From Cyanidioschyzon merolae (Eukaryota), in NCBI GenBank assembly GCA_000091205.1, contig AP006493.2: a stretch of DNA of 64,000 nucleotides. One strand, given 5' to 3'. The notes under the pieces were generated by a model. The model ran no database searches, was not told the origin of the DNA, and saw nothing but the letters and a program-made list of their open reading frames with translations. Shown here piece after piece: positions 1 through 9,682 of this stretch (the stretch's first letter is position 1; each line of letters begins with the position of its first letter). The position numbers and the translations under genes are program-made.

Positions 1-3000
1 CCCCCCATTCCAGTATTAATGTCTCTAGCGATTGGTCCGAGGGGAATCTTTTCCATCATAGTACTGTGTGTGGCCACCTGGATACTCCAGTACGCGCAGT
101 AGTATGGATGCATTTTAGCTTGACCGCCTCGTCGTTTCCTATGTTTTGGGCCCCGGCCTTCGCGCGTGGTCTGAATCGCGCGCTCGCTTGTGTTGCTTTC
201 GTGTGTGTCGTTCTTCAACATTTTTTGTCTCCGTTTTGTTCTCTCAACATCTCACATCACTTAAATGCTGCTTTCTCGGTGCCAGGTTGTCTCCAATGTA
301 ACGCAAATATCTTATCCGAACAAAGAAAATGTTCACATTATGTTATTTTCGGTATTTTTCTGCTAAGATTCTTGTCGAATTTTGTTCCCATCCTACCTAA
401 TTAATGGCCTTCCAACTGCACATGGCTCGGTATTGTTGAGCTTTCAGTTATCTGCGACTTCAGACCAGCCCAATGGCTGTGTGCGTTGTTTGCTCCGCTT
501 AGTAACTCTGCTATCCTCATCGTGTTTCTTCACACGATTTTGATCGTTGTTTGCAAGCCCTTCGTCCATACATTCATATCCACCGGGTTTCAGAGCTCTC
601 CGAATATCCACAGTAGTCATCATTGTTCGTATTTCGTTCTTGGTTATGAACTTGCTGTAAGTCTCCCTACTCAGCTGCAAGCTCATAGCTACATATCCTC
701 TTTGGAACATATTCTCTGTTGCAACTCTATCTTTTCTCTTTCAGCGTTCCTAGCACTAGCCGTTACCTAGCCCGAATTTGCTAGTGGCTACCTTCCAGGC
801 GACTCTGGTGCGGTTTCTTCGTCGACAGCTTGTAGGTCCGGGACCTGTTGTTGCCTGCGTCTGGATCCGATTCATGGATGATCCGAGAGCAATTTTGGAA
901 AATAAAGACGACCCGAGCCCTAAGATCTCTGGCAGCCATACAGTGACCGTGGGCACTTTATTTCTATTAGGAGCTGCAATCTCCGTTTCCGCGTACCGAT
1001 CATTCTCTAGGAGGCGACCGATATCACTTTGCGCGGTCGGTATGCAGTATGCAGCACACCGGTCTGTACGCCATTTCGCTCAGCAGCTGTGCGTCGCACC
1101 TCGACTGGGCTCGTTTCTGGAGTGAGCGTCTGATACAGGAAACGGACCCTACGTATCGATGCGCGTGCCGTGGTTGTTCAGACAAGGCACATGGATATAA
1201 TTTGTTGGGTCGATTCAGGATTTGAATGTACGTCTAGCGTCGCGTCCTTACCATAAGCATCCACAGGCGCTAAGCGTACGTTATATCTGTTTCTCTCCTG
1301 CCGACCCGTATTCAGCATTCCGACTCGGATTCCGTTTTCAGTGAAGTTGAGAAGATCCAGTACAGCTGATTACCCTCACCCGTGCCCATCAATACGGTCT
1401 AGCAATGCACCTCAGTCTATCGCTTTGCCAGTGCTTGCGGTACCAGGCATAATTTCATACAAGCTGAGATCCAACATTGTTTACCATCCATATAGGTTGT
1501 TTACAGGAATGAACACATTGTCGCAGGGCAGCATGCAGGGAACTACATGTGCACTAGAAACAGACCATGATCGAGGCCTCTTCTTCTGGTCTGTATTCTG
1601 ATTCGTTGGATTCACGCACAACACTGTTCCCTATGCTCTTTCTTGTACGCGTACACTGAATTCACGAACCACTGTTCACTAATCTGTCTAGTTATTGCCC
1701 CTACACATCTCTAGAGTAGCAATAGCATTGTTCCGCGCTACCGTTCCTGGAAGGCGGAATCAGCCACCGCGCCGCCTCGGCATCAAAGAGCAGCTGGCCC
1801 CGATATGAAAATGAGCTTTTCGCCCATACAAGTCTGCTTGCGGCTGCTACAGGGATGCTTGGTTGGAGGCAAAGATCGCGAGCACCCAAACTCTGACCTT
1901 AGCGTCCTTGCTTCTTGTTTATTGTTCAAAGCTTGCTGCTTGGCGTCTCGCCTTTATTCCTTATGACCTAGAGTTTACCAGATGCGGCTTCTGAAACATG
2001 CTGCCGGCACCGTATCCACAAAGCACAGACTGGCTTCACCTGTAGCTCACTCCGGACATGTAGCGGTTCATGCCGATAAACGCACTAGAGCCAGTACTCG
2101 AACCACTCCAAACGCGGGTACCGCGGAAGAGTCGGAGCTTGTCTGGACGAGACTGTAGCAAACTCCAAGGTACCAGTTGAATGTCGCGCGTCCACTTGAG
2201 CTTCATCTAGACTTACATCATGCACATTCTGACTAGCTTCGCTGCGTGAGGGTTGCGCTCTGGGCTACGCCTCGTCGGTCGGAGTCGTGGCGACAGGCCC
2301 AATCAGGTCGATCGTTCCATAAGCACCGGTTTGTTGCTAGCAGTAGGCTGCCTTGTGCGATCAGCAGGACTGGCACGACTGTGCTCATGAGCACGGGAAC
2401 TTGCTTTGCATTAATTATGAAGTATATACATAGTGTGCGTCTTCCAGGGCACCAGAACATAAATATAAACATCGTTCTACACAAAGTTTGGAGCAGTGTG
2501 CAGAGCTTCTGGCACAGTACACTCTGCCTTTATAACTATGGGGATCAGGCTGTGGTAACGTTCTTTCTAGTGACGTCTACTGACAGCCAGGGTCATTTCA
2601 CTGCCGATATTTTTCCTGGCAGTCCTTCTCATCTGCAGTGCATCAACGGAATAACCGTGAGATATTTACTCCTTGGCCTTATAACTTTCCGTTTTCATGC
2701 TTTCCACTGCAGGAGCTGTAGAATTGTACGACTATAACCAATTCTATTTCTCCACATTCAGTCGCGAATCTTGATCATATTGCATCCAATATTGCATTTC
2801 GTTTTTTTTTTTGAAATAATTTCCATAGATTTTTCTCGTATCTTCCCAACTGTGAAATCCTTAACGCTCTCACTGCACCGTTCCAAGCACCACGCCACAG
2901 TGCTAACAGCCAATTTTCATATCTGAATGTATGTTCGAGCGGAGCGCTCAACAACTCCCCAGCCACCATACTATTTCGAAGCATAGATGCATGCAATGCT

Positions 3001-3327: not shown

Positions 3328-5544
3328 TCAGCAGGCTGCAACTACAACACTTACGCGAGCCTCCGTTAAAACACGTGCTGCACTCGTCCAAATGTGATAG
3401 AGCCTTTCTGCATACGGCATGATACCCACAATACCCTCTGTGCCGAGCCCTGATCCCCATACCTTGCGCAGAGCATCGACCCGCGCAGGCCACAACACTG
3501 CATGTGCCACAGCATGCGATGCGTACGTCCCGTAGCAGCTCACGAGAACGCCGTCGACCACAAGGCGCCCTGAGCGAGTCAACGGCGCATAGAGACCATT
3601 GTGCGTAACTAAAGTCTCGATTGCCACTACGGGGTCCGGCAGGTGCGCAGCAACGTCCAGCAGAGCGTCGCCAACGCGGATTTCTTCCGCGAAAACTGCC
3701 TCAACGGCGGAGGTATCCAACTCAAGGCTCTGACGTATGTGCTCCTGCTGATGCTGCTGCTGCTGCTTCTGTGAAATACACGAGAAAGCGGTCGTCATAC
3801 CGTAAAAGTCTCTAGAGTGTTCGATCATTCGATATACCAGATGCTGTCTCGTCAGACGCAGCTGCTTTCCGGAACGCGTCTTGATCGCCAGAATCTCTGC
3901 AGTAGCGCCGGCCTCGTTATGCAACCATCCTAGTACACTATCTTCGACCAGTTGCCCGCGCCCATTGACGCCCATTACGGCCATACCTGATCGAAGCTCG
4001 CTTATCTGCAGATGGTTGCCCAGACCATCGATCAGCACCGAGGCATCCGCGGGGAAGCAGACCGCAGAGCCTTCGCCCACAGCGGTCTGCGTCACATTTG
4101 TCGTTGCCGACGGTTCTGCAGTAACGGAGGGCGTCGGTGATGCCGTCGGAGTAGGCGTCGGTGTTGCGATGTATAATGTGAAGAGGTCATTATAGATGCC
4201 TGGTTTGCCTAGGCCTCCGAACAGGACCGGGTCGTTTTGATCGGTATCCCAAAGAACTGCACCGTATCGCGGAGGTGGAAGCGTAGTATTGCTTGTCTTG
4301 TTAAGCTCGCCGTAGCTATAGGCTCCATTCGTTGTATTGTCACCGTCTACCCAAGTCCATTCAAGACTCGTAATATTGAACGTCCACAGGTCGTTGCAGG
4401 CACCGGGTGAACTACCACCGAAGAGATACAGAGTGTTTGACGAGTCTACAAATCCAGAGGAAAAGGACCTGTACCCCGGAGTGTTGCTCGATGACGGCAC
4501 TCCTTTCTCGCCGTATACTGCCCCATTCAAACCAATTTTTTCATCTCCAGACATCCAGGTCCATTCTTTGGAGCTGACATTGTACAGCCATAAATCATTG
4601 AGAAGGCCGCCAGGTCTGACAATCTCTCCATCACCGCCAAAGAGCCAAAAGTTCCCATCAAGGTCTCGCCACGATGTGGCTCCGTAACGTCCCGCGGGAT
4701 AATTGCTCGGCGATGCCTGGCGAAACGTACCATAGCTTCCAGAGGGGTCCGGCTCTTGACTGCCCCCTACCCAGCTCCATTCGTTGTTCGCTGGGTTATA
4801 CTGCCACAAGTCACCGTAACTACTTCCATTAGCACCAGATCCACCAAAGAGATAAAACTGGTCATCCAAGCCAACCCAGGCCGCGGTTTTGTAGCGAGCA
4901 CCAGGCGTGTTGCTTGAAGACGAGTTTCCACGAGGACCATATGTCGGGGAAACATTGGTCTTGTTGGATCCCTGCACCCATGTCCATTCGCCCGACGATA
5001 CATTATACATCCACATATCACTATAGCCCGAGTTAAAATTCCAGCCTCCATATAGCCAAAGGTTTCCGTAGCTGTCGCTCCAACCAGCGGATTGCGTCCT
5101 CGAAGGCGGATGGTTGCTCTTGTTGGGAACTCCGCGGGAGCCGTATACCCCTGCAGAGTTGAGGGATGCAGAGCCTCCAACCCAGGTCCAAGAGAACGTG
5201 CTTAGATTGTAGTTCCAGAGATCACCGAAGACGTCTCTCAAGTCGCTGCCACCACCAAACAACCAGAGCACCCCGTCAGCGCCGGTCCAGAAGACCGCAC
5301 CGTACCGCGCCGGAGGCACGTTGCTGGTGTTCGGCACACCCTGAACACCGTAGCTACCTGAACTGCCGGTAGAGTTACTGCCACCGATCCAGGTCCATAA
5401 AAAAGTATCTTCGGAGGACAAAACTCCACGAACTGTGTGTGTACTCGACACAACCAATACTACCACCAGGAGTCTCACTATGGAAAAATATCTTTTTCGC
5501 ATATAGGATACGAAAGGGGTTCTGCACCAGTGAAAAGAAAACAC
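3328..5544 (-). CDS. Secreted Kelch-repeat (6-bladed propeller-like) protein fused to a C-terminal Hedgehog-type Hint (Hog) autoprocessing domain
   Basis: Single 738-aa ORF that ends in TGA. The N-terminus has a probable signal peptide (from the 2nd Met, MRKRYFSIVRLLVVVLVVSS). It has about 6 Kelch-like repeats (LWLFGG ... DLWxYN ... WTWVxG ... PxxRYG) with many NxS/T sequons, then a Thr/Pro-rich linker (TPTPTPTASPTPS), then a Hint domain. The Hint domain starts with the Hedgehog cleavage motif G|CFPADASVLIDG and ends with NGLYAPLTRSGRLVVDGVLVSCYGTYASHAVAHAVLWP, which resembles the Hh Hog region around SCYA. Confidence 0.8.
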   Translation of the reverse strand: MFSFHWCRTPFVSYMRKRYFSIVRLLVVVLVVSSTHTVRGVLSSEDTFLWTWIGGSNSTGSSGSYGVQGVPNTSNVPPARYGAVFWTGADGVLWLFGGGSDLRDVFGDLWNYNLSTFSWTWVGGSASLNSAGVYGSRGVPNKSNHPPSRTQSAGWSDSYGNLWLYGGWNFNSGYSDMWMYNVSSGEWTWVQGSNKTNVSPTYGPRGNSSSSNTPGARYKTAAWVGLDDQFYLFGGSGANGSSYGDLWQYNPANNEWSWVGGSQEPDPSGSYGTFRQASPSNYPAGRYGATSWRDLDGNFWLFGGDGEIVRPGGLLNDLWLYNVSSKEWTWMSGDEKIGLNGAVYGEKGVPSSSNTPGYRSFSSGFVDSSNTLYLFGGSSPGACNDLWTFNITSLEWTWVDGDNTTNGAYSYGELNKTSNTTLPPPRYGAVLWDTDQNDPVLFGGLGKPGIYNDLFTLYIATPTPTPTASPTPSVTAEPSATTNVTQTAVGEGSAVCFPADASVLIDGLGNHLQISELRSGMAVMGVNGRGQLVEDSVLGWLHNEAGATAEILAIKTRSGKQLRLTRQHLVYRMIEHSRDFYGMTTAFSCISQKQQQQHQQEHIRQSLELDTSAVEAVFAEEIRVGDALLDVAAHLPDPVVAIETLVTHNGLYAPLTRSGRLVVDGVLVSCYGTYASHAVAHAVLWPARVDALRKVWGSGLGTEGIVGIMPYAERLYHIWTSAARVLTEARVSVVVAAC

Positions 5545-6300
5545 CTCCCAGGGAAACGAGTTGCTTAGAATCTACAGGGATAGGAGAGCCTCCAGCTGCT
5601 GGTACTGTTGTCACTGTTGTCTCCGTCCTTACCACCACCAGGCTCCACGAAGTATTCTGAGGTAAGCAGCACGGGAGCGCGTCAAGCACCGCCGTCTGAA
5701 TGACGCAGATCTGCGCACGGCGCTCCCGAAACGGGACATTTCTGGAATAAACGGCCAAAGATATTTTGCAGCGCCTGCTACTGAGTTTCATGAAGGCGCT
5801 CTCGTAATGGCAATGCAAGATAGTCGTCTACGCCGCAGTCGTGTTTCAGATACACATGCAGAGTCCAAACACCCAAAAGGTCTAATAGCATGCCCGTCGC
5901 ACATTCGGACCCGGCCTGCTATGACGCAGTACGAACAACTCCCTCTTTCTGCAGGTCATCTGCATATTTGTTGGCATCCCGTCTAGAGGTATGTTTGGTG
6001 TCCAGATACCCTCAACATTGGATTATGGGCCGCCAACCCGGACTGGAAGGTTGCGTGCATGCATGTGCGAACTATATTGCACAACTAAGATCCTCATGGA
6101 ATGAATATATCAATAACTGAAACACATTCTTAGTTCTATGGTCGCGCGCGGGGCTGTACAGATAGCTGGCGTCAACGCAGTGGTTCATACTGAACCACTT
6201 GCTGAGGCATGCGTTGAGGTCGACACCAATACGACGCACTTGGAGACGCAGTTGCAGTCGCAATAATGGCACTCGGAGTCGGTGTGGGACTAATCTACAA

Positions 6301-7377
6301 TCACTCGTTGTTGATGCACTCCTCGCCAGAGCGGCAACAACGCACCTTGTTCACAAGGTTATCCGAAGCGATCAGGTACGTCCCGCACTGCTTTGTAGGG
6401 TCCTTGCATACACAGAATGACGGCAACAGCACCTGTTGCTGCTGCTGCTGTTGTCGCAGGTTATTGCTGTTGCTGAACGGGTTGTACGTACAGTTCTCTA
6501 TCTCGGCGTTGCAGCACTCCGGGCCACACGGAATATAGCTCGAGTTCGATACGTTGCCGGTCGTGCCGCTCATCGAGTTCGAGACGTACCCATACGCCTG
6601 GCACACGTACTCGGTCATCGGCTGGAAGCACTCGATGCCGATCCCCAGGCAGCAACCAGCCTCCAGACACTGCTGCGGCGAGTAGCTCGTGCGCTGCGTC
6701 CCGTGCTGCTCCCCGTACAGAAGCGTGTTCAGCAGACGCACAAACTGGTTGTTGTTGATATTATTGTTGGGCAGCTGCTGGTTCTGATTCACCGCGTTCG
6801 TGCACGGCTGGCGCTCAAACTCGCCCACAGCGCACGTCTTCTCGGGCTGGAAGCAGTACGGGTTCGACTCAAAGTCGCTCTGCTGCTTGCTGTTCTGCAC
6901 CCACTGGTTCTGCGCCTGCGAGTCGTAGCAGCAGCCCTAGGCATACCAGGTAAACTGGTTGATACCCGCGTTGCCGCACGGCTGGCGCTGCGCTCCCGGT
7001 GACGGGCAGACGGGTACTGGTGCCTGCACCTCCTGCAGCGCTACAGAGGCCTGCGGTGCATGGTTGATGTCGTAGTAGCACCAGGGCGCCAGGATGCCGT
7101 TCGCTGTTGGCTGCCAGCAGCATCCCGGTATCGCAGTGCACTCGTCTGGATAGATATAGCTCCAGCCGCAGGGGACGCGCTGCGTCACTGGAACAGCGCT
7201 GCACGCCGCTGAGACGCTCTTCAGAGTGCACGCGTTCGTCTGGGCGTTGAAGCAGCACCCGACTCGCTCGTAAGCGTCCTGGTTGATGCACTGTCCTGGA
7301 GATCCGCAGAGCTCATTGCAGAAATGGGGTGGGCGTCCGCGAAGTTTCTGGTGTTGGAGTAGGGGATGTTCCTCTCA
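6301..7377 (-). pseudogene. Cys-rich extracellular protein with trefoil (P-type) domain(s) and an N/Q-rich low-complexity region; the reading frame contains an in-frame TAG
   Basis: The minus-strand frame reads ...CNELCGSPGQCINQDAYERVGCCFNAQTNAC...RVPCGWSYIYPDECTAIPGCCWQPTANGILAPWCYYD, a textbook trefoil pattern (C..R.D/PC.......C...GCC[FW]......PWC[FY]). The same frame continues ...NQFTWYA*GCCYD... across a TAG at about 6934-6936, into ORF 6301-6900, which is full of Cys pairs and poly-Q/N. No ATG or signal peptide is present in this exon; see the neighbouring Kelch exon. Confidence 0.5.
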
Positions 7378-7428
7378 ATGAAAAGACATCATTGATAAAG
7401 TCACTGCAAGCGTGTTTGAACATCCAAA

Positions 7429-7614
7429 TCAACCAAATATGATCGGATCAGTCTCAATGTTGTTCCAGAATGCTGACCCATAGCGAGCACCTGGTACAAT
7501 CCTTGGGTCGGATTCGTTCAATGCACCATATCTTGCTGGAGCATTCACTGCCGAGCTTTCATTAATCCACGCCCGTTGACCCACTTTGATATCGAATACC
7601 CACAGATTTTTCAA
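7429..7614 (-). CDS. Single Kelch-repeat exon or fragment, possibly spliced to the trefoil gene through a 60-nt GT...AG intron
   Basis: ORF MKNLWVFDIKVGQRAWINESSAVNAPARYG...IIFG parallels the Kelch repeats of the 3328-5544 protein. A GT donor just after ...ATA TTT G and an AG acceptor 60 nt downstream (7439 to 7380) would join it in frame to ...EEHPLLQHQKLRGRPPHFCNELCGSPGQC (the trefoil exon). Confidence 0.35.
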   Translation of the reverse strand: MKNLWVFDIKVGQRAWINESSAVNAPARYGALNESDPRIVPGARYGSAFWNNIETDPIIFG

Positions 7615-8083
7615 ACGTCTGCAAGTGCGCTTCTATTGCCGTATTCTTCACCGCACAGAATTACCCAAATAAACACGCTCTGCCCTCTTGAACGACCACA
7701 GTTGGCAGTCTCTGGCGCATTCGATGCGAAGTAGGTCATAGCTATAGCTAAATGAATCACTATTGAAGTACGCTTTATGACTTGCGAAGCAATTTTGGTT
7801 CTCTACATCAGGAGGAGTGCCCTTTCACCCGATCACTATCCGATCGTGACAGTGGGGTGTCGTCTCATCGTTACGCTGTTGCTCTTACATCTGTTCTTGA
7901 AGCAGTGGTCTGCGCTCCGAAGCCGCATCTCATTCTCATCACTAACAAACCTTAGACAGGGGCCAAGATAGTCGACTTGAGGACTCGCCACCGTAAAGCC
8001 TGGTCGATCAGATCAAGACTCAGTTCGAATAGCTGATCTGCCTTGTCGATTTCGTACGTTGGTTCAATAACCTGCGGTTTCGT

Positions 8084-9211
8084 CTACTCACGCCCATCGG
8101 TATACTTGCCACGCCACTGACAATACGACCCCGAGTCCGAGAACTGTCCCTGGGTCGCCACTTCGGCTACGCGGCGGCCGGCCCCATCATTGGGAACGTA
8201 TTGCCGAGTGATGTACTTCTGAAGAATCGGGAAGAATACGTAGCGGAACCAGCCACGCTTTTCGGGGAAGAGGTTGCCGTCGGCGACACATCCGGGAATA
8301 ATAGCCACAGAGGTCACCCCGTCGCGGCCGTATCGATCACTGAGCGCCTTCGTTGTTAACACCTTCGCGGCTTTGGCGTCTTTGTAGGCTTTTGTGGGCT
8401 CAAACGGGCCTCTGTCCACCATGCCTGTCGTCTGCGGACCGAGCCCCGCGGCTAGACCAGACAAATCACCGAGACGAGCCTGTGGGGGGATCTTTCCCGG
8501 CAGCGAATTCGGCGAGTGGGTCTGAGTCGTCAGAAACACAATGCGCCTGCGCGATATTTTCAGCTTCGGCAACAGCTCCCGACATAGAAGCAAATGGCTC
8601 AGATGGCACACGTGCATGGTTTCCTCGATGCCGCCCACCGTGAAACGCGGTTTCTTGTCCGGCGGATGCTATATTGCGGCATTGCAGATCAGGGCATCCA
8701 GGTGATCGACGCGCGCCACACTTGACAGCTCTCTCACAAACTTTAATACAGAGGCGAAATCAGCCAGATCACAATGCAGCACTGTATAGGTGTCCTTTGG
8801 AAGGTTTACGCTGTTTGCTGCGCGCTCCGCCCGGTCGACGTCACGACATGCCATGACGATGTGCCAGTTGCCCTTGTTGACCAGAGCGCGAGCTGCATAC
8901 AGACCGACCCCAGAGGACGCGCCAGTGATCACGGCGATCTGCGACTGTTTCGGGCCCATACGAAGATGCAGCGCGTGGTGCCGGCGCGCTACAGGCGAAC
9001 GCTGCACCACCAAAGGAAGCGGATGCTGGCAGTGGTAACGATGTCCAGCTGCGAAGCACCTGTCACGTGCGGTACACAGCGGAAACGGTGCTCGAGTTGC
9101 AGCGGGTGCGCCAACTATGTGTTTTTCCTGGCACAGTGAAAAACAAACCAATACGTCTTGCAGTTTTTTGGGATAGATTTTCTCCGGTGGTAAAGCTGCC
9201 AACTTCATCAC
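8084..9211 (-). CDS. POR: Light-dependent NADPH:protochlorophyllide oxidoreductase (SDR family) with an N-terminal transit-peptide-like extension; one in-frame TAG (8669-8671)
   Basis: VITGASSGVGLYAARALVNKGNWHIVMACRD...LICNAAI, then TAG, then HPPDKKPRFTVGGIEETMHVCHLSHLLL...LGDLSGLAAGLG...KAYKDAKAAKVLTT...FPILQKYITRQYVPNDGAGRRVAEV. This aligns residue by residue with plant and algal POR. The TAG sits exactly at the conserved Tyr of CNAAVY(L/H)P. The two ORFs are in the same frame, and no GT/AG intron can remove the stop. Confidence 0.8.
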
Positions 9212-9513
9212 CGACTAAAGTCGTTCGCGTACGCATGCATTTCCAGTGAGAAATCTCTTTCTCGTTGCTGCACGAGTGATCGCCCGTCAATTGCACAGAG
9301 TCCGACTTCTGACTCCCGTAGACTGTCTAGCGTTGAGCGCATCGAGCACAAGCGCTCAATGTCTTCCACAGAGACGAGGCAAAGCTCTTATCATTCCAGA
9401 CACCAACCTCGCCAGTACTAGTAACTCAGTGCTCCGCATTGTTGCGCTTAGATATCACAACGATCGTAGTGGCACGATGCTGCACCCCGGCGTACGGCGC
9501 AGCGGACACGCAA

Positions 9514-9682
9514 GGGAATTCCCTCCAGCGGGATGATTTCGGCGCATATGCATCTGCCAAGGCGATGCTTCGAACAGCTGAGCTATTAGGGAATTCCCTC
9601 CAGCGGGATGATTTCGGCGCATATGCATCTGCCAAGGCGATGCTTAGAACAGCAGAGCTATTAGGGAATTCCCTCCCGCGCT
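9514..9682. repeat. 75-bp tandem repeat (2.2 copies) containing GGGAATTCCC and GCATATGC palindromes; upstream of POR
   Basis: The unit GGGAATTCCCTCCAGCGGGATGATTTCGGCGCATATGCATCTGCCAAGGCGATGCTTCGAACAGCTGAGCTATTA recurs at 9514, 9589 and 9664 (partial). Confidence 0.85.

Follow-up and report, generated by a model that had tools for sequence, protein, structure and literature searches.

Genes of the Cyanidiales that couple Kelch repeats to a trefoil domain (K+T) or to a Hint domain (K+Hog) belong to an already published subtelomeric family (Nozaki 2007; Cho 2023). Fusions in which Kelch is joined to trefoil or Hint by a Thr/Pro/Ala linker are the commonest subtelomeric duplicated genes of the Cyanidiales (Cho 2023, Nat Commun 14:10), and trefoil domains of Cyanidioschyzon merolae have been annotated since 2007 (Nozaki 2007). 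In intact members one intron-less frame specifies a signal peptide and a Kelch propeller of six blades, then a linker rich in Thr and Pro, and then a Cys-rich region in which two trefoil modules are full and two partial; some members end in a Ser/Thr/Ala tail. According to published data, the walled diploid phase is where the intact K+T paralogues are chiefly expressed. Their products are probably heavily glycosylated proteins secreted to the cell surface or cell wall, and their trefoil modules would bind glycans like the vertebrate TFF lectins. Convergent acid protection has been suggested for the algal trefoil proteins (PMC13353863).

Full-length K+T genes are represented by C. merolae CME001C (BAM79243.1), an uninterrupted frame for 901 aa in which six Kelch blades follow the signal peptide, the linker is long and a Ser/Thr/Ala tail is present; it is diploid-biased and strongly expressed in diploid cells. 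CMH282C (BAM79920.1), annotated as 'similar to trefoil factor', is a trefoil-only ('T-only') variant within the PH element at the right end of chromosome 8 of C. merolae 10D. It is a single open frame of 373 codons that lacks the signal peptide found in CME001C; it starts at the ATG of MFKHACSDF..., passes through a short Thr/Pro linker into the Cys-rich trefoil region, stops after ...ECINNE, and has a K+Hog gene (CMH283C) as neighbour. In Cyanidium caldarium, CDCA10G3079 is an intact trefoil-only gene with its own signal peptide, a Thr/Ser/Ala linker and no Kelch remnant. Housekeeping genes surround it, ~32-52 kb in from the end of a contig of 470 kb, and it has been classed as non-subtelomeric (Cho 2023). 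The six-Cys P-domain motif with CG, GCC and PWC is common to the algal module, vertebrate TFF1, TFF2 and TFF3 and the P-type domain of GH31 glucosidases (PF00088). In the alga, unlike in the TFFs and GH31 enzymes, the trefoil domains form part of a far larger Cys-rich region, to which a Kelch propeller is fused.

The window analysed here, the whole stretch of 64,000 nucleotides, is the left end of chromosome 11 (11L) of C. merolae 10D, with six ORFs matching 10D chromosome 11 proteins exactly (CMK009C among others). Nozaki 2007 counts 11L as a PH element and gives the names T, P and H to genes found at chromosome ends; several syntenic copies were recovered. The eight PH elements of 10D are 6L, 7R, 8L, 8R, 11L, 14R, 18R and 19R, and TFF-like genes number 15. 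The setting of the locus is defined by the following features.

1..9, plus strand: one unit of the telomere repeat, CCCCCCATT (complement of AATGGGGGG), marking the chromosome end
3328..5502, minus strand: CMK001C, which encodes a Kelch + Hint ('hedgehog-like', K+Hog) protein and is gene H in the PH subtelomeric element (Pfam recognises Kelch and Hint, E = 4e-33)
6232..7614, minus strand: the whole of what is very probably a relic of a K+T gene, homologous to CME001C residues 390-878
7955..9211, minus strand: a protochlorophyllide-reductase-like SDR (POR-like) gene, the P gene of the PH element

The telomere repeat of C. merolae is described in PMC1955436, and the relic, on the minus strand 6.2-7.6 kb from the repeat unit, lies near a telomere in a duplicated subtelomeric element, as is typical of the K+T family. 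CMK001C, for which the first ATG at 5502 is our own reading of the ORF, is listed as 'similar to hedgehog protein', K+Hog, in the Data Set gene list of PMC13353863. No mention of the identifiers CMK001C-CMK004C was found in the main texts of the literature. Looked up by exact sequence, the ATG-start version of the Kelch-Hint protein, P0104 and P0130 gave no match, and the window ORF 6301-6900 was identified as P0090. In the 10D protein list CMK001C is followed directly by CMK006C, and no protein is annotated for the relic between them. The POR-like gene contains an in-frame TAG at 8671-8669, which is TGG in the copy L007.

Our results argue strongly that the locus is a non-functional relic, a pseudogene, of a K+T gene in the PH element at 11L. 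Window positions 7614-6232 are collinear with CME001C residues 390-878 at 76% identity including gaps (tblastn), and the relic is 93% identical to CMH282C residues 31-373 (tblastn). Identity and collinearity with annotated members place it in the Cyanidiales subtelomeric K+T family, and with CME001C and the other full-length K+T genes it shares its subtelomeric position and the order of last blade, linker and trefoil/Cys-rich modules. The complete propeller and N-terminal signal peptide of the K+T variant are absent, the last blade alone being left. This truncated architecture is that of CMH282C, which retains the Cys and Gln changed at 11L and is annotated, whereas the 11L copy carries a 2-bp deletion, a Cys-to-Trp change and a TAG and has no protein annotation. 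The Cys-rich trefoil region that runs from ...TPTPIC as far as the RCC...C motif at the C-terminus is shared with CDCA10G3079, at 55% identity. The remains of the gene, and the lesions within them, are as follows.

7432..7614, minus strand: remnant of the last Kelch blade (LKNLWVFDIKVGQRAWINESS...PGARYGSAFWNNIETDPIIFG), with no ATG and with stop codons upstream
7374..7433, minus strand: candidate 'intron', the only 60-nt in-frame GT...AG near the coordinates first proposed for one, homologous to paralogue coding sequence
7429..7431, minus strand: in-frame TGA ending the Kelch frame; L002, L003 and L007 read GTT GGA AAT there (alignments)
7313..7423, minus strand: short ORF in another frame, MFKHACSDFINDVFSLRGTSPTPTPETSRTPTPFLQ and a stop, matching CMH282C residues 1-32 and including a Thr/Pro linker remnant
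7410..7411, minus strand: site of a 1-bp deletion (AACACG-CTTGC) relative to L002, L003 and L007
7325..7326, minus strand: 2-bp deletion site (CACCCC--ATTTC), seen in the DNA alignment with L002, L003 and L006
7228..7320, minus strand: module 1, a partial trefoil-like Cys module (CNELCGSPGQCINQDAYERVGCCFNAQTNAC) with one conserved Cys changed to Tyr (TAC 7272-7270)
7069..7203, minus strand: module 2, a complete six-Cys trefoil (P-type) domain (CSAVPVTQRVPCGWSYIYPDECTAIPGCCWQPTANGILAPWCYYD), PF00088
6844..7008, minus strand: module 3, a second full-length trefoil domain, disabled in the window copy by Cys-to-Trp (TGG 6948-6946) and CAG-to-TAG (6939-6937)
6937..6939, minus strand: in-frame TAG, a nonsense mutation from CAG (Gln), adjoining the Cys-to-Trp change
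6304..6843, minus strand: rest of the Cys-rich region, in which a fourth GCC module is degenerate (QQCLEAGCCLGIGIECFQP), a stretch is rich in Asn and Gln, and the C-terminal part is again Cys-rich (CGPECCNAE...CVCKDPTKQCG...RCCRSGEEC)
6301..6303, minus strand: terminal TGA, which is TGG in L002 and TGT in L003, L004 and L007

At the 5' end, the first 389 residues of CME001C have no counterpart in the window copy. The syntenic environmental contig L014 carries the P gene, a full K+T gene and a Kelch gene in the window's order, and its positions 3477-7166, within which the signal peptide and five blades lie, are not matched by anything between 7692 and 7615 in the window. This comparison shows that a deletion of ~3.7 kb took the promoter, signal peptide and five blades from the 11L copy, and the remaining last blade now abuts the 3' flank of the POR-like gene. 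An upstream first exon with a signal peptide was sought in 7614-7800, where a possible GTAAT...TTGCAG intron lies near 7660-7615. Such an exon is rejected: the phase is incompatible, MTYFASNAPETANCGR... does not qualify as a signal peptide, and L014 puts the real N-terminus in the deleted 3.7 kb. By BLASTP the Kelch piece matches the last blade (residues 385-443) of the Kelch-Hint protein encoded next to it, at E = 4e-13, and it aligns to CME001C residues 390-449; scanned alone against Pfam it has no match. It is one Kelch blade of the same gene as the trefoil piece. A recent duplication of neighbouring CMK001C is ruled out for the blade, with an identity of just 32-35%. At the 3' end the terminal TGA is common to CMH282C and the full-length P0093, and L002, L003, L004 and L007 read past the site into a Ser/Thr/Ala/Pro tail, a remnant of which is recognisable in the window at 6300-6232.

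The trefoil assignment, which the initial annotation based on the signature RVPCGWSYIYPDECTAIPGCCWQPTANGILAPWCYYD, is secure. The Pfam check places it on the minus strand at about 7203-7069, where the window translation scores 42.8 bits on PF00088 (profile positions 1-42 of 43; gathering score 21 bits). Module 2 of the near-identical homologue P0002, scanned alone, scores 44.6 bits over the same profile positions. When tested against the trefoil pattern C-x10-C-x9-C-x4-CC-x10-C with CG, GCC and PWC motifs, module 2 reads C-x10-C-x9-C-x5-CC-x12-C. The spacing between Cys3 and Cys4 is therefore 5 residues against the usual 4; relative to TFF3, a single residue is added ahead of CC and two are added behind it. 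Human TFF3, TFF1 and TFF2 are its best PDB sequence matches (TFF3, 6v1c, E = 8.5e-6, all six Cys aligned), and MGAM is also similar (E = 5e-3). The trefoil fold has three loops held by disulfides 1-5, 2-4 and 3-6. The AF2 model of a 337-aa homologue (7-sequence alignment) was unusable at pLDDT 37, and a single-domain model reached pLDDT 67; Foldseek found nothing in the PDB with E below 1. A partial trefoil reported upstream, CINQDAYERVGCCFNAQTNAC, holds as a partial trefoil-like module. The intact homologue of this module 1 scores 18.4 bits on PF00088 positions 12-33, under the gathering score, and its Cys-to-Tyr change recurs in L001 and L010-L013. Module 3 of intact P0002 scores 28.4 bits over profile positions 1-43 of 43. 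The window's own version scores 22.5 bits over that range and loses the six-Cys pattern, as Cys3 is Trp and a stop follows. Module 4 reaches only 10.5 bits, and the region 6304..6843 is conserved out to C. caldarium CDCA10G3079. The peptide NSKQQSDFESNPYCFQPEK is specific to the 11L copy; its paralogue form is NGKQQSDFASNPYCFQPEK. As the initial annotation had it, a genuine trefoil domain belongs here to a Cys-rich protein of a protist, a red alga; given what has been known in C. merolae since 2007, this is no new phylogenetic surprise.

The lesions suggest a path by which the copy may have decayed. The 1-bp deletion would have put the ATG (7423) in frame and created a signal-peptide-less 'T-only' ORF of the type still annotated at chromosome 8R (CMH282C). 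The TGA, the 2-bp deletion and the Cys-to-Tyr change would have followed in the 11L lineage, with the Cys-to-Trp and CAG-to-TAG changes within the second trefoil domain the most recent. This order is drawn from few copies, and the metagenome contigs may represent other PH elements (orthologues or paralogues). Splicing of the 11L copy is very improbable, and no secreted trefoil protein can come from it. Decay is general in relic-type copies: L003, L006 and L007 have other stops, and the same Cys codon is TGG, TAC or TAA depending on the copy. Relic branches carry 53 non-synonymous and 42 synonymous changes, against 9 and 20 for the full-length-type L004 (Fisher p = 0.03). Two observations count against a pseudogene. 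Pairwise dN/dS over the trefoil region is 0.15-0.33, resembling purifying selection (about 0.2 between the window and L001, on very few changes), and the sister copy CMH282C is transcribed (TPM 25-71). By inference, we attribute the low dN/dS to recent origin and sequence exchange with functional paralogues, because the trefoil half of P0093/L014 is ~99% identical (protein) to the window. The relic itself may be transcribed or have a role as an RNA.

Such exchange raises the question of whether the relic, non-coding as it is, has been kept as a sequence donor, in which case ectopic recombination would move tracts between T relics and full-length K+T genes and diversify a secreted surface family. 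P0093/L014 is indeed a mosaic. Beside its window-like trefoil half, it shares with the window 93.8% identity over the DNA block that spans the trefoil region and the K+Hog gene, whereas at its last Kelch blade the DNA identity is just 72% and its linker belongs to the L004 type. Synonymous distances among the copies are not additive, and dN/dS is low despite disabling lesions. The mosaic is, however, equally explained by conversion in the opposite direction or by duplication history, and retention for this purpose would require evidence of selection; we consider it very unlikely.

A pseudogene also accounts for the junction between the Kelch and trefoil pieces, where the initial annotation had proposed a Kelch exon (7429-7614) spliced to the trefoil exon through a 60-nt GT...AG intron at 7380-7439; for a functional two-exon gene of this kind, the TAG would have to be an error or a readthrough site. 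The two ORFs share one frame with two TGA codons between them (7431-7429 and 7377-7375), and the trefoil frame, as first noted, lacks an ATG and signal peptide. No GT...AG stands at 7439/7380. The 60-nt in-frame pair 6 nt away, at 7433-7374, would drop both TGA codons and restore the frame, in itself weak evidence, and the trefoil region retains a long frame and low dN/dS. Against this, CME001C, P0093 (865 aa), L002 and L003 run from the last Kelch blade through the Thr/Pro linker into the trefoil region in a single unbroken frame, and the candidate intron aligns to coding sequence of L002, L003, CMH282C and CME001C and includes, at 7423-7421, the start codon of CMH282C. The intron is not supported because the paralogues read through in one continuous frame and the candidate is homologous to their coding sequence. 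After splicing, moreover, 7373-7326 would be out of register with the ancestral linker and read EEHPLLQHQKLRGRPPHF instead of ...TFPTPTPKTSRTPTPIC. The Kelch 'exon' has neither ATG nor signal peptide and supplies one blade of six. Only 27 introns have been reported in the genome (PMC4829280), the 5' site is GTTGAT with no branch-point-like CTAAC, which by our own reading looks weak as a splice signal, and the TAG is independently confirmed in metagenome contigs. A functional spliced gene is thus very improbable.

In the relic, the frame is broken instead by the TGA at 7431-7429 and the two deletions, with the TAG at 6939-6937 interrupting it again further on. The 1-bp deletion shifts the Kelch frame and thereby brings the ATG at 7423 into frame with the linker, of which a short remnant rich in Thr/Pro/Ala, TSPTPTPETSRTPTP, persists in the shifted frame at about 7360-7325. 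The 2-bp deletion splits this ATG-initiated frame from the trefoil frame and ends the short ORF at TGA 7315-7313. Relative to CMH282C, the break falls between residues 31 and 32 (tblastn), with residues 1-32 on 7423-7328 (P0104 as query, frame -1, 81% identity) and 31-373 on 7332-6304. Judged from these alignments, the Kelch-trefoil join is not a splice and the apparent intron is an artefact of two frameshifts.

The TAG was correctly recognised as lying in frame inside a trefoil domain, but it occupies 6939-6937 rather than 6934-6936 and precedes the third GCC motif of the frame, in the second full trefoil domain, not the second motif. All copies compared read CAG at this site unless they belong to the window's own lineage, and L001, L002 and L004 have TGC/TGT and CAG at the module 3 sites. 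A really intact gene whose stops and frameshifts stem from faulty sequencing or assembly of the reference might be entertained for a subtelomeric region repeated at eight chromosome ends and hard to finish, all the more as L001, at 98.3% identity, reads CAG and TGC where the window has its two specific changes. Yet the TAG is not a sequencing error, because four independent contigs have it: L010-L013, from four metagenome samples and 97.8-99.5% identical to the window, carry the exact TGG...TAG. The three that reach the upstream sites all share the same TGA and both deletions, as does L001, and errors in the reference are a most implausible source of the lesions. That the TAG is recoded or read through to make a full trefoil protein is scarcely credible, even though the neighbouring POR-like gene also has a single in-frame TAG and both frames stay open beyond it, because TAG ends four of the six ORFs in the window that exactly match annotated 10D proteins (CMK009C, CMK010C and two more), stop-codon usage that rules out an alternative genetic code; moreover, the two TAGs stand for different amino acids (Gln and Trp), and even readthrough would leave no start codon, no signal peptide and two upstream frameshifts. 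On the codons of the compared copies, the TAG at 6939-6937 is a true nonsense mutation and simply terminates.

The 11L copy is a pseudogene of a published family and, as a finding, ordinary. What the present analysis adds is the presence, in the 11L PH element, of a T copy that has no annotation, is truncated at its 5' end and carries several disruptions, beside a POR-like gene with a nonsense TAG. Its importance beyond annotation is small, the trefoil having been published in 2007, the K+T fusion and its subtelomeric amplification in 2023, and diploid-phase expression also. It carries a caution for de novo reading: in an intron-poor genome, near-telomere ORFs that share a frame across a short stop-containing gap are likelier to be a decaying paralogue than a spliced gene. 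The mosaic with the full-length gene hints at ongoing recombination within the K+T family, which would be of modest interest for the dynamics of Cyanidiales subtelomeres. Given that mosaic and the low dN/dS despite lesions, there is an outside chance that the trefoil relics of PH elements are not inert and that, by exchanging tracts with full-length K+T genes, they may form an archive diversifying secreted diploid-phase surface proteins, loosely comparable to the pseudogene archives of antigen families.

The locus lies on the minus strand, 6.2–7.6 kb from the telomere at the left end of chromosome 11, and is a decayed copy of a gene family already known from the literature. The placement follows from six long ORFs of the window, which are identical to annotated 10D proteins encoded on one 852,849-bp chromosome (CMK009C, CMK010C, a PDI-like protein, adenosine kinase, a Trk2p-like and a glycogenin-like protein), and from a single telomere unit, CCCCCCATT, at positions 1–9. 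This is the complement of the species' unit AATGGGGGG (the repeat is described in PMC1955436), and its single occurrence agrees with the published statement that no more than 2.5 repeats could be sequenced at the chromosome ends. Trefoil factor (T), POR (P) and hedgehog (H) genes have been described at C. merolae chromosome ends, with 11L among the named PH elements (Nozaki et al. 2007), and the locus is flanked by the latter two:

3328–5544, minus strand: CMK001C, K+Hog gene (Kelch + Hint), 'similar to hedgehog protein'
7955–9211, minus strand: protochlorophyllide-reductase-like (POR-like) SDR gene, P gene of the PH element

In CMK001C a signal peptide and a six-blade Kelch propeller are joined by a Thr/Pro linker to a Hint (Hog) domain. 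The POR-like gene keeps one frame throughout apart from an in-frame TAG at 8671–8669, which is TGG (Trp) in copy L007; given this stop and its absence from the 10D protein list, it is probably a second pseudogene. Just past it is a 75-bp tandem repeat (9513–9680; 2.2 copies, 96% identity). Neither the locus nor its POR-like neighbour is annotated as protein-coding in the 10D gene list (PMC13353863), in which CMK006C comes immediately after CMK001C.

The trefoil domain, the Kelch blade and the TAG reported in the initial annotation are all real, and its minus-strand frame is present on re-reading. The trefoil region matches Pfam PF00088 at 42.8 bits (E = 4.9e-11; gathering score 21). When modules were scored one by one using the intact homologue P0002, two exceeded that threshold:

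7320–7228, minus strand: module 1, CINQDA.E.VGCCFN..TNAC, 18.4 bits, under threshold
7203–7069, minus strand: module 2, RVPCGW...PWCYYD, 44.6 bits, profile positions 1–42 of 43
7008–6844, minus strand: module 3, RQPCGNAGINQFTCYAQGCCYD...NPYCFQP, 28.4 bits intact and 22.5 bits in the window version
inside 6843–6304, minus strand: module 4, a fourth GCC motif, faint at 10.5 bits

The only PDB sequence matches of a 98%-identical homologue are human TFF3 and TFF1, porcine spasmolytic polypeptide and maltase-glucoamylase (top match E = 8.5e-6, six of six Cys aligned). The ORF at 7429–7614, proposed as a Kelch-repeat piece, gave no Pfam match when scanned alone; it can be aligned with each blade of the adjacent Kelch-Hint protein, the last blade best (E = 4e-13), which bears the proposal out.

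Protein searches returned CDCA10G3079 of Cyanidium caldarium ('Trefoil factor', 55% identity) and eight hot-spring metagenome clusters (80–98%), within which fall two annotated 10D proteins. In CME001C (BAM79243.1, 901 aa) a signal peptide, a six-blade Kelch propeller and a Thr/Pro linker precede the Cys-rich trefoil region, after which comes a Ser/Thr/Ala tail, whereas CMH282C (BAM79920.1, 373 aa) is a 'T-only' form that begins MFKHACSDFLNDVFALRKAFPTPTPK... and lacks a signal peptide. Another truncated T copy apparently lies beside an unrelated gene in P0009, a 389-aa metagenome ORF on a 1559-nt contig, whose N-terminus has ribosomal L39e-like and C2-domain Pfam matches and is followed by a Gly-rich stretch and the C-terminal half of the Cys-rich region.

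The Kelch and trefoil ORFs had been proposed to be spliced in frame through a 60-nt GT...AG intron at 7380–7439. Neither GT nor AG occurs at 7439 or 7380, although a 60-nt in-frame GT...AG stretch is found at 7433–7374. This stretch is homologous coding sequence and includes the CMH282C-type start codon. By tblastn, CME001C residues 390–878 align to 7614–6232, CMH282C residues 1–32 to 7423–7328 in one frame and residues 31–373 to 7332–6304 in another (93% identity); the metagenome copies L002 and L003 read from the last Kelch blade through to the trefoil region in one open frame, ...DPIVFVGNGYINTTGSDFLNGIFALKKTFPTLTPKPTRTPTPICTDELCGSP.... Multiple alignment instead places between the ORFs substitutions giving a TGA (7431–7429) and deletions of 1 bp (7411/7410) and 2 bp (7326/7325). 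As the deletions sum to 3 bp, the two ORFs seem to be in the same frame on either side of a gap that contains stops. With coding homology across the stretch and the gap explained by these lesions, a splice join is very unlikely and the intron is not supported. Only 27 introns are reported for C. merolae (PMC4829280).

The in-frame TAG within the trefoil region is present, at 6939–6937 rather than 6934–6936. Recoding is not credible, since TAG is the stop codon of four of the window's six annotation-confirmed genes. The codon is CAG (Gln) in all compared copies outside the window's own lineage, and intact copies carry a Cys three codons earlier (FTCYAQGCC versus FTWYA*GCC). A reference error is ruled out by the identical TGG...TAG in L010–L013, four contigs that each come from a different metagenome sample (97.8–99.5% identity to the window); all three of these that reach far enough also carry the TGA and both deletions. 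Shared across separate samples, the lesions can be taken as real alleles. The Cys codon at 6948–6946, third of the second trefoil domain, was lost independently as TGG in the window, TAC in L003 and L007 and TAA in L006, and these three copies hold further stops and Cys losses. On parsimony-assigned branches, relic-type copies show 53 non-synonymous or nonsense against 42 synonymous changes, compared with 9 against 20 in the full-length-type copy L004 (Fisher p = 0.03). Nonsense changes in the relic and the POR-like gene are both C-to-T or G-to-A transitions. The relic's terminal TGA is also found in CMH282C and in the full-length protein P0093; beyond it, at 6232–6300 (minus), the frame reads L*ISPTPTPSAIIATATASPSAS, a remnant of the Ser/Thr/Ala/Pro tail translated in other members.

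The environmental contig L014 (JGI 3300005861) has the window's gene order, but there the POR-like gene and the next Kelch gene flank a complete K+T gene of 865 aa (P0093). Between 7692 and 7615 the window lacks any equivalent of L014 positions 3477–7166, which hold intergenic region, signal peptide and five Kelch blades; this indicates that the 11L copy is a 5'-truncated K+T gene. Judging by which copies share which lesions, the truncation would have been followed by the 1-bp deletion, creating a CMH282C-type ATG-initiated ORF, then by the TGA, the 2-bp deletion and a Cys-to-Tyr change, all common to L001, and lastly by Cys-to-Trp and the TAG.

Kelch joined by a Thr/Pro/Ala linker to either trefoil or Hint is the commonest subtelomeric duplicated gene type of Cyanidiales, with 12–24 copies (Cho et al. 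2023). Thirteen of the 15 TFF-like genes of C. merolae are expressed chiefly in the walled diploid phase, with convergent acid protection as the suggested role (2026 Plant Cell paper, PMC13353863), and several are induced in a nickel-stress transcriptome. CMK001C shows the opposite of the K+T genes, a strong haploid bias (published TPM ~490–720 haploid, ~36 diploid). By analogy with TFFs and from the published expression, intact members may be secreted glycan-binding wall or matrix proteins.

Pairwise dN/dS in the trefoil region (0.15–0.33) is below expectation for an old pseudogene and does not fit simply with a decayed copy. The trefoil half of P0093 is ~99% identical to the window in protein, and DNA identity is 93.8% over the L014 block from the trefoil region up to and including the K+Hog gene. 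In contrast, P0093 has a different type of linker and a last Kelch blade with only 72% DNA identity. The pattern indicates a mosaic K+T family and suggests gene conversion or recombination within it. There appears to be sequence exchange between relics and functional genes, or else a very recent split, and this may explain the low dN/dS of the trefoil region.
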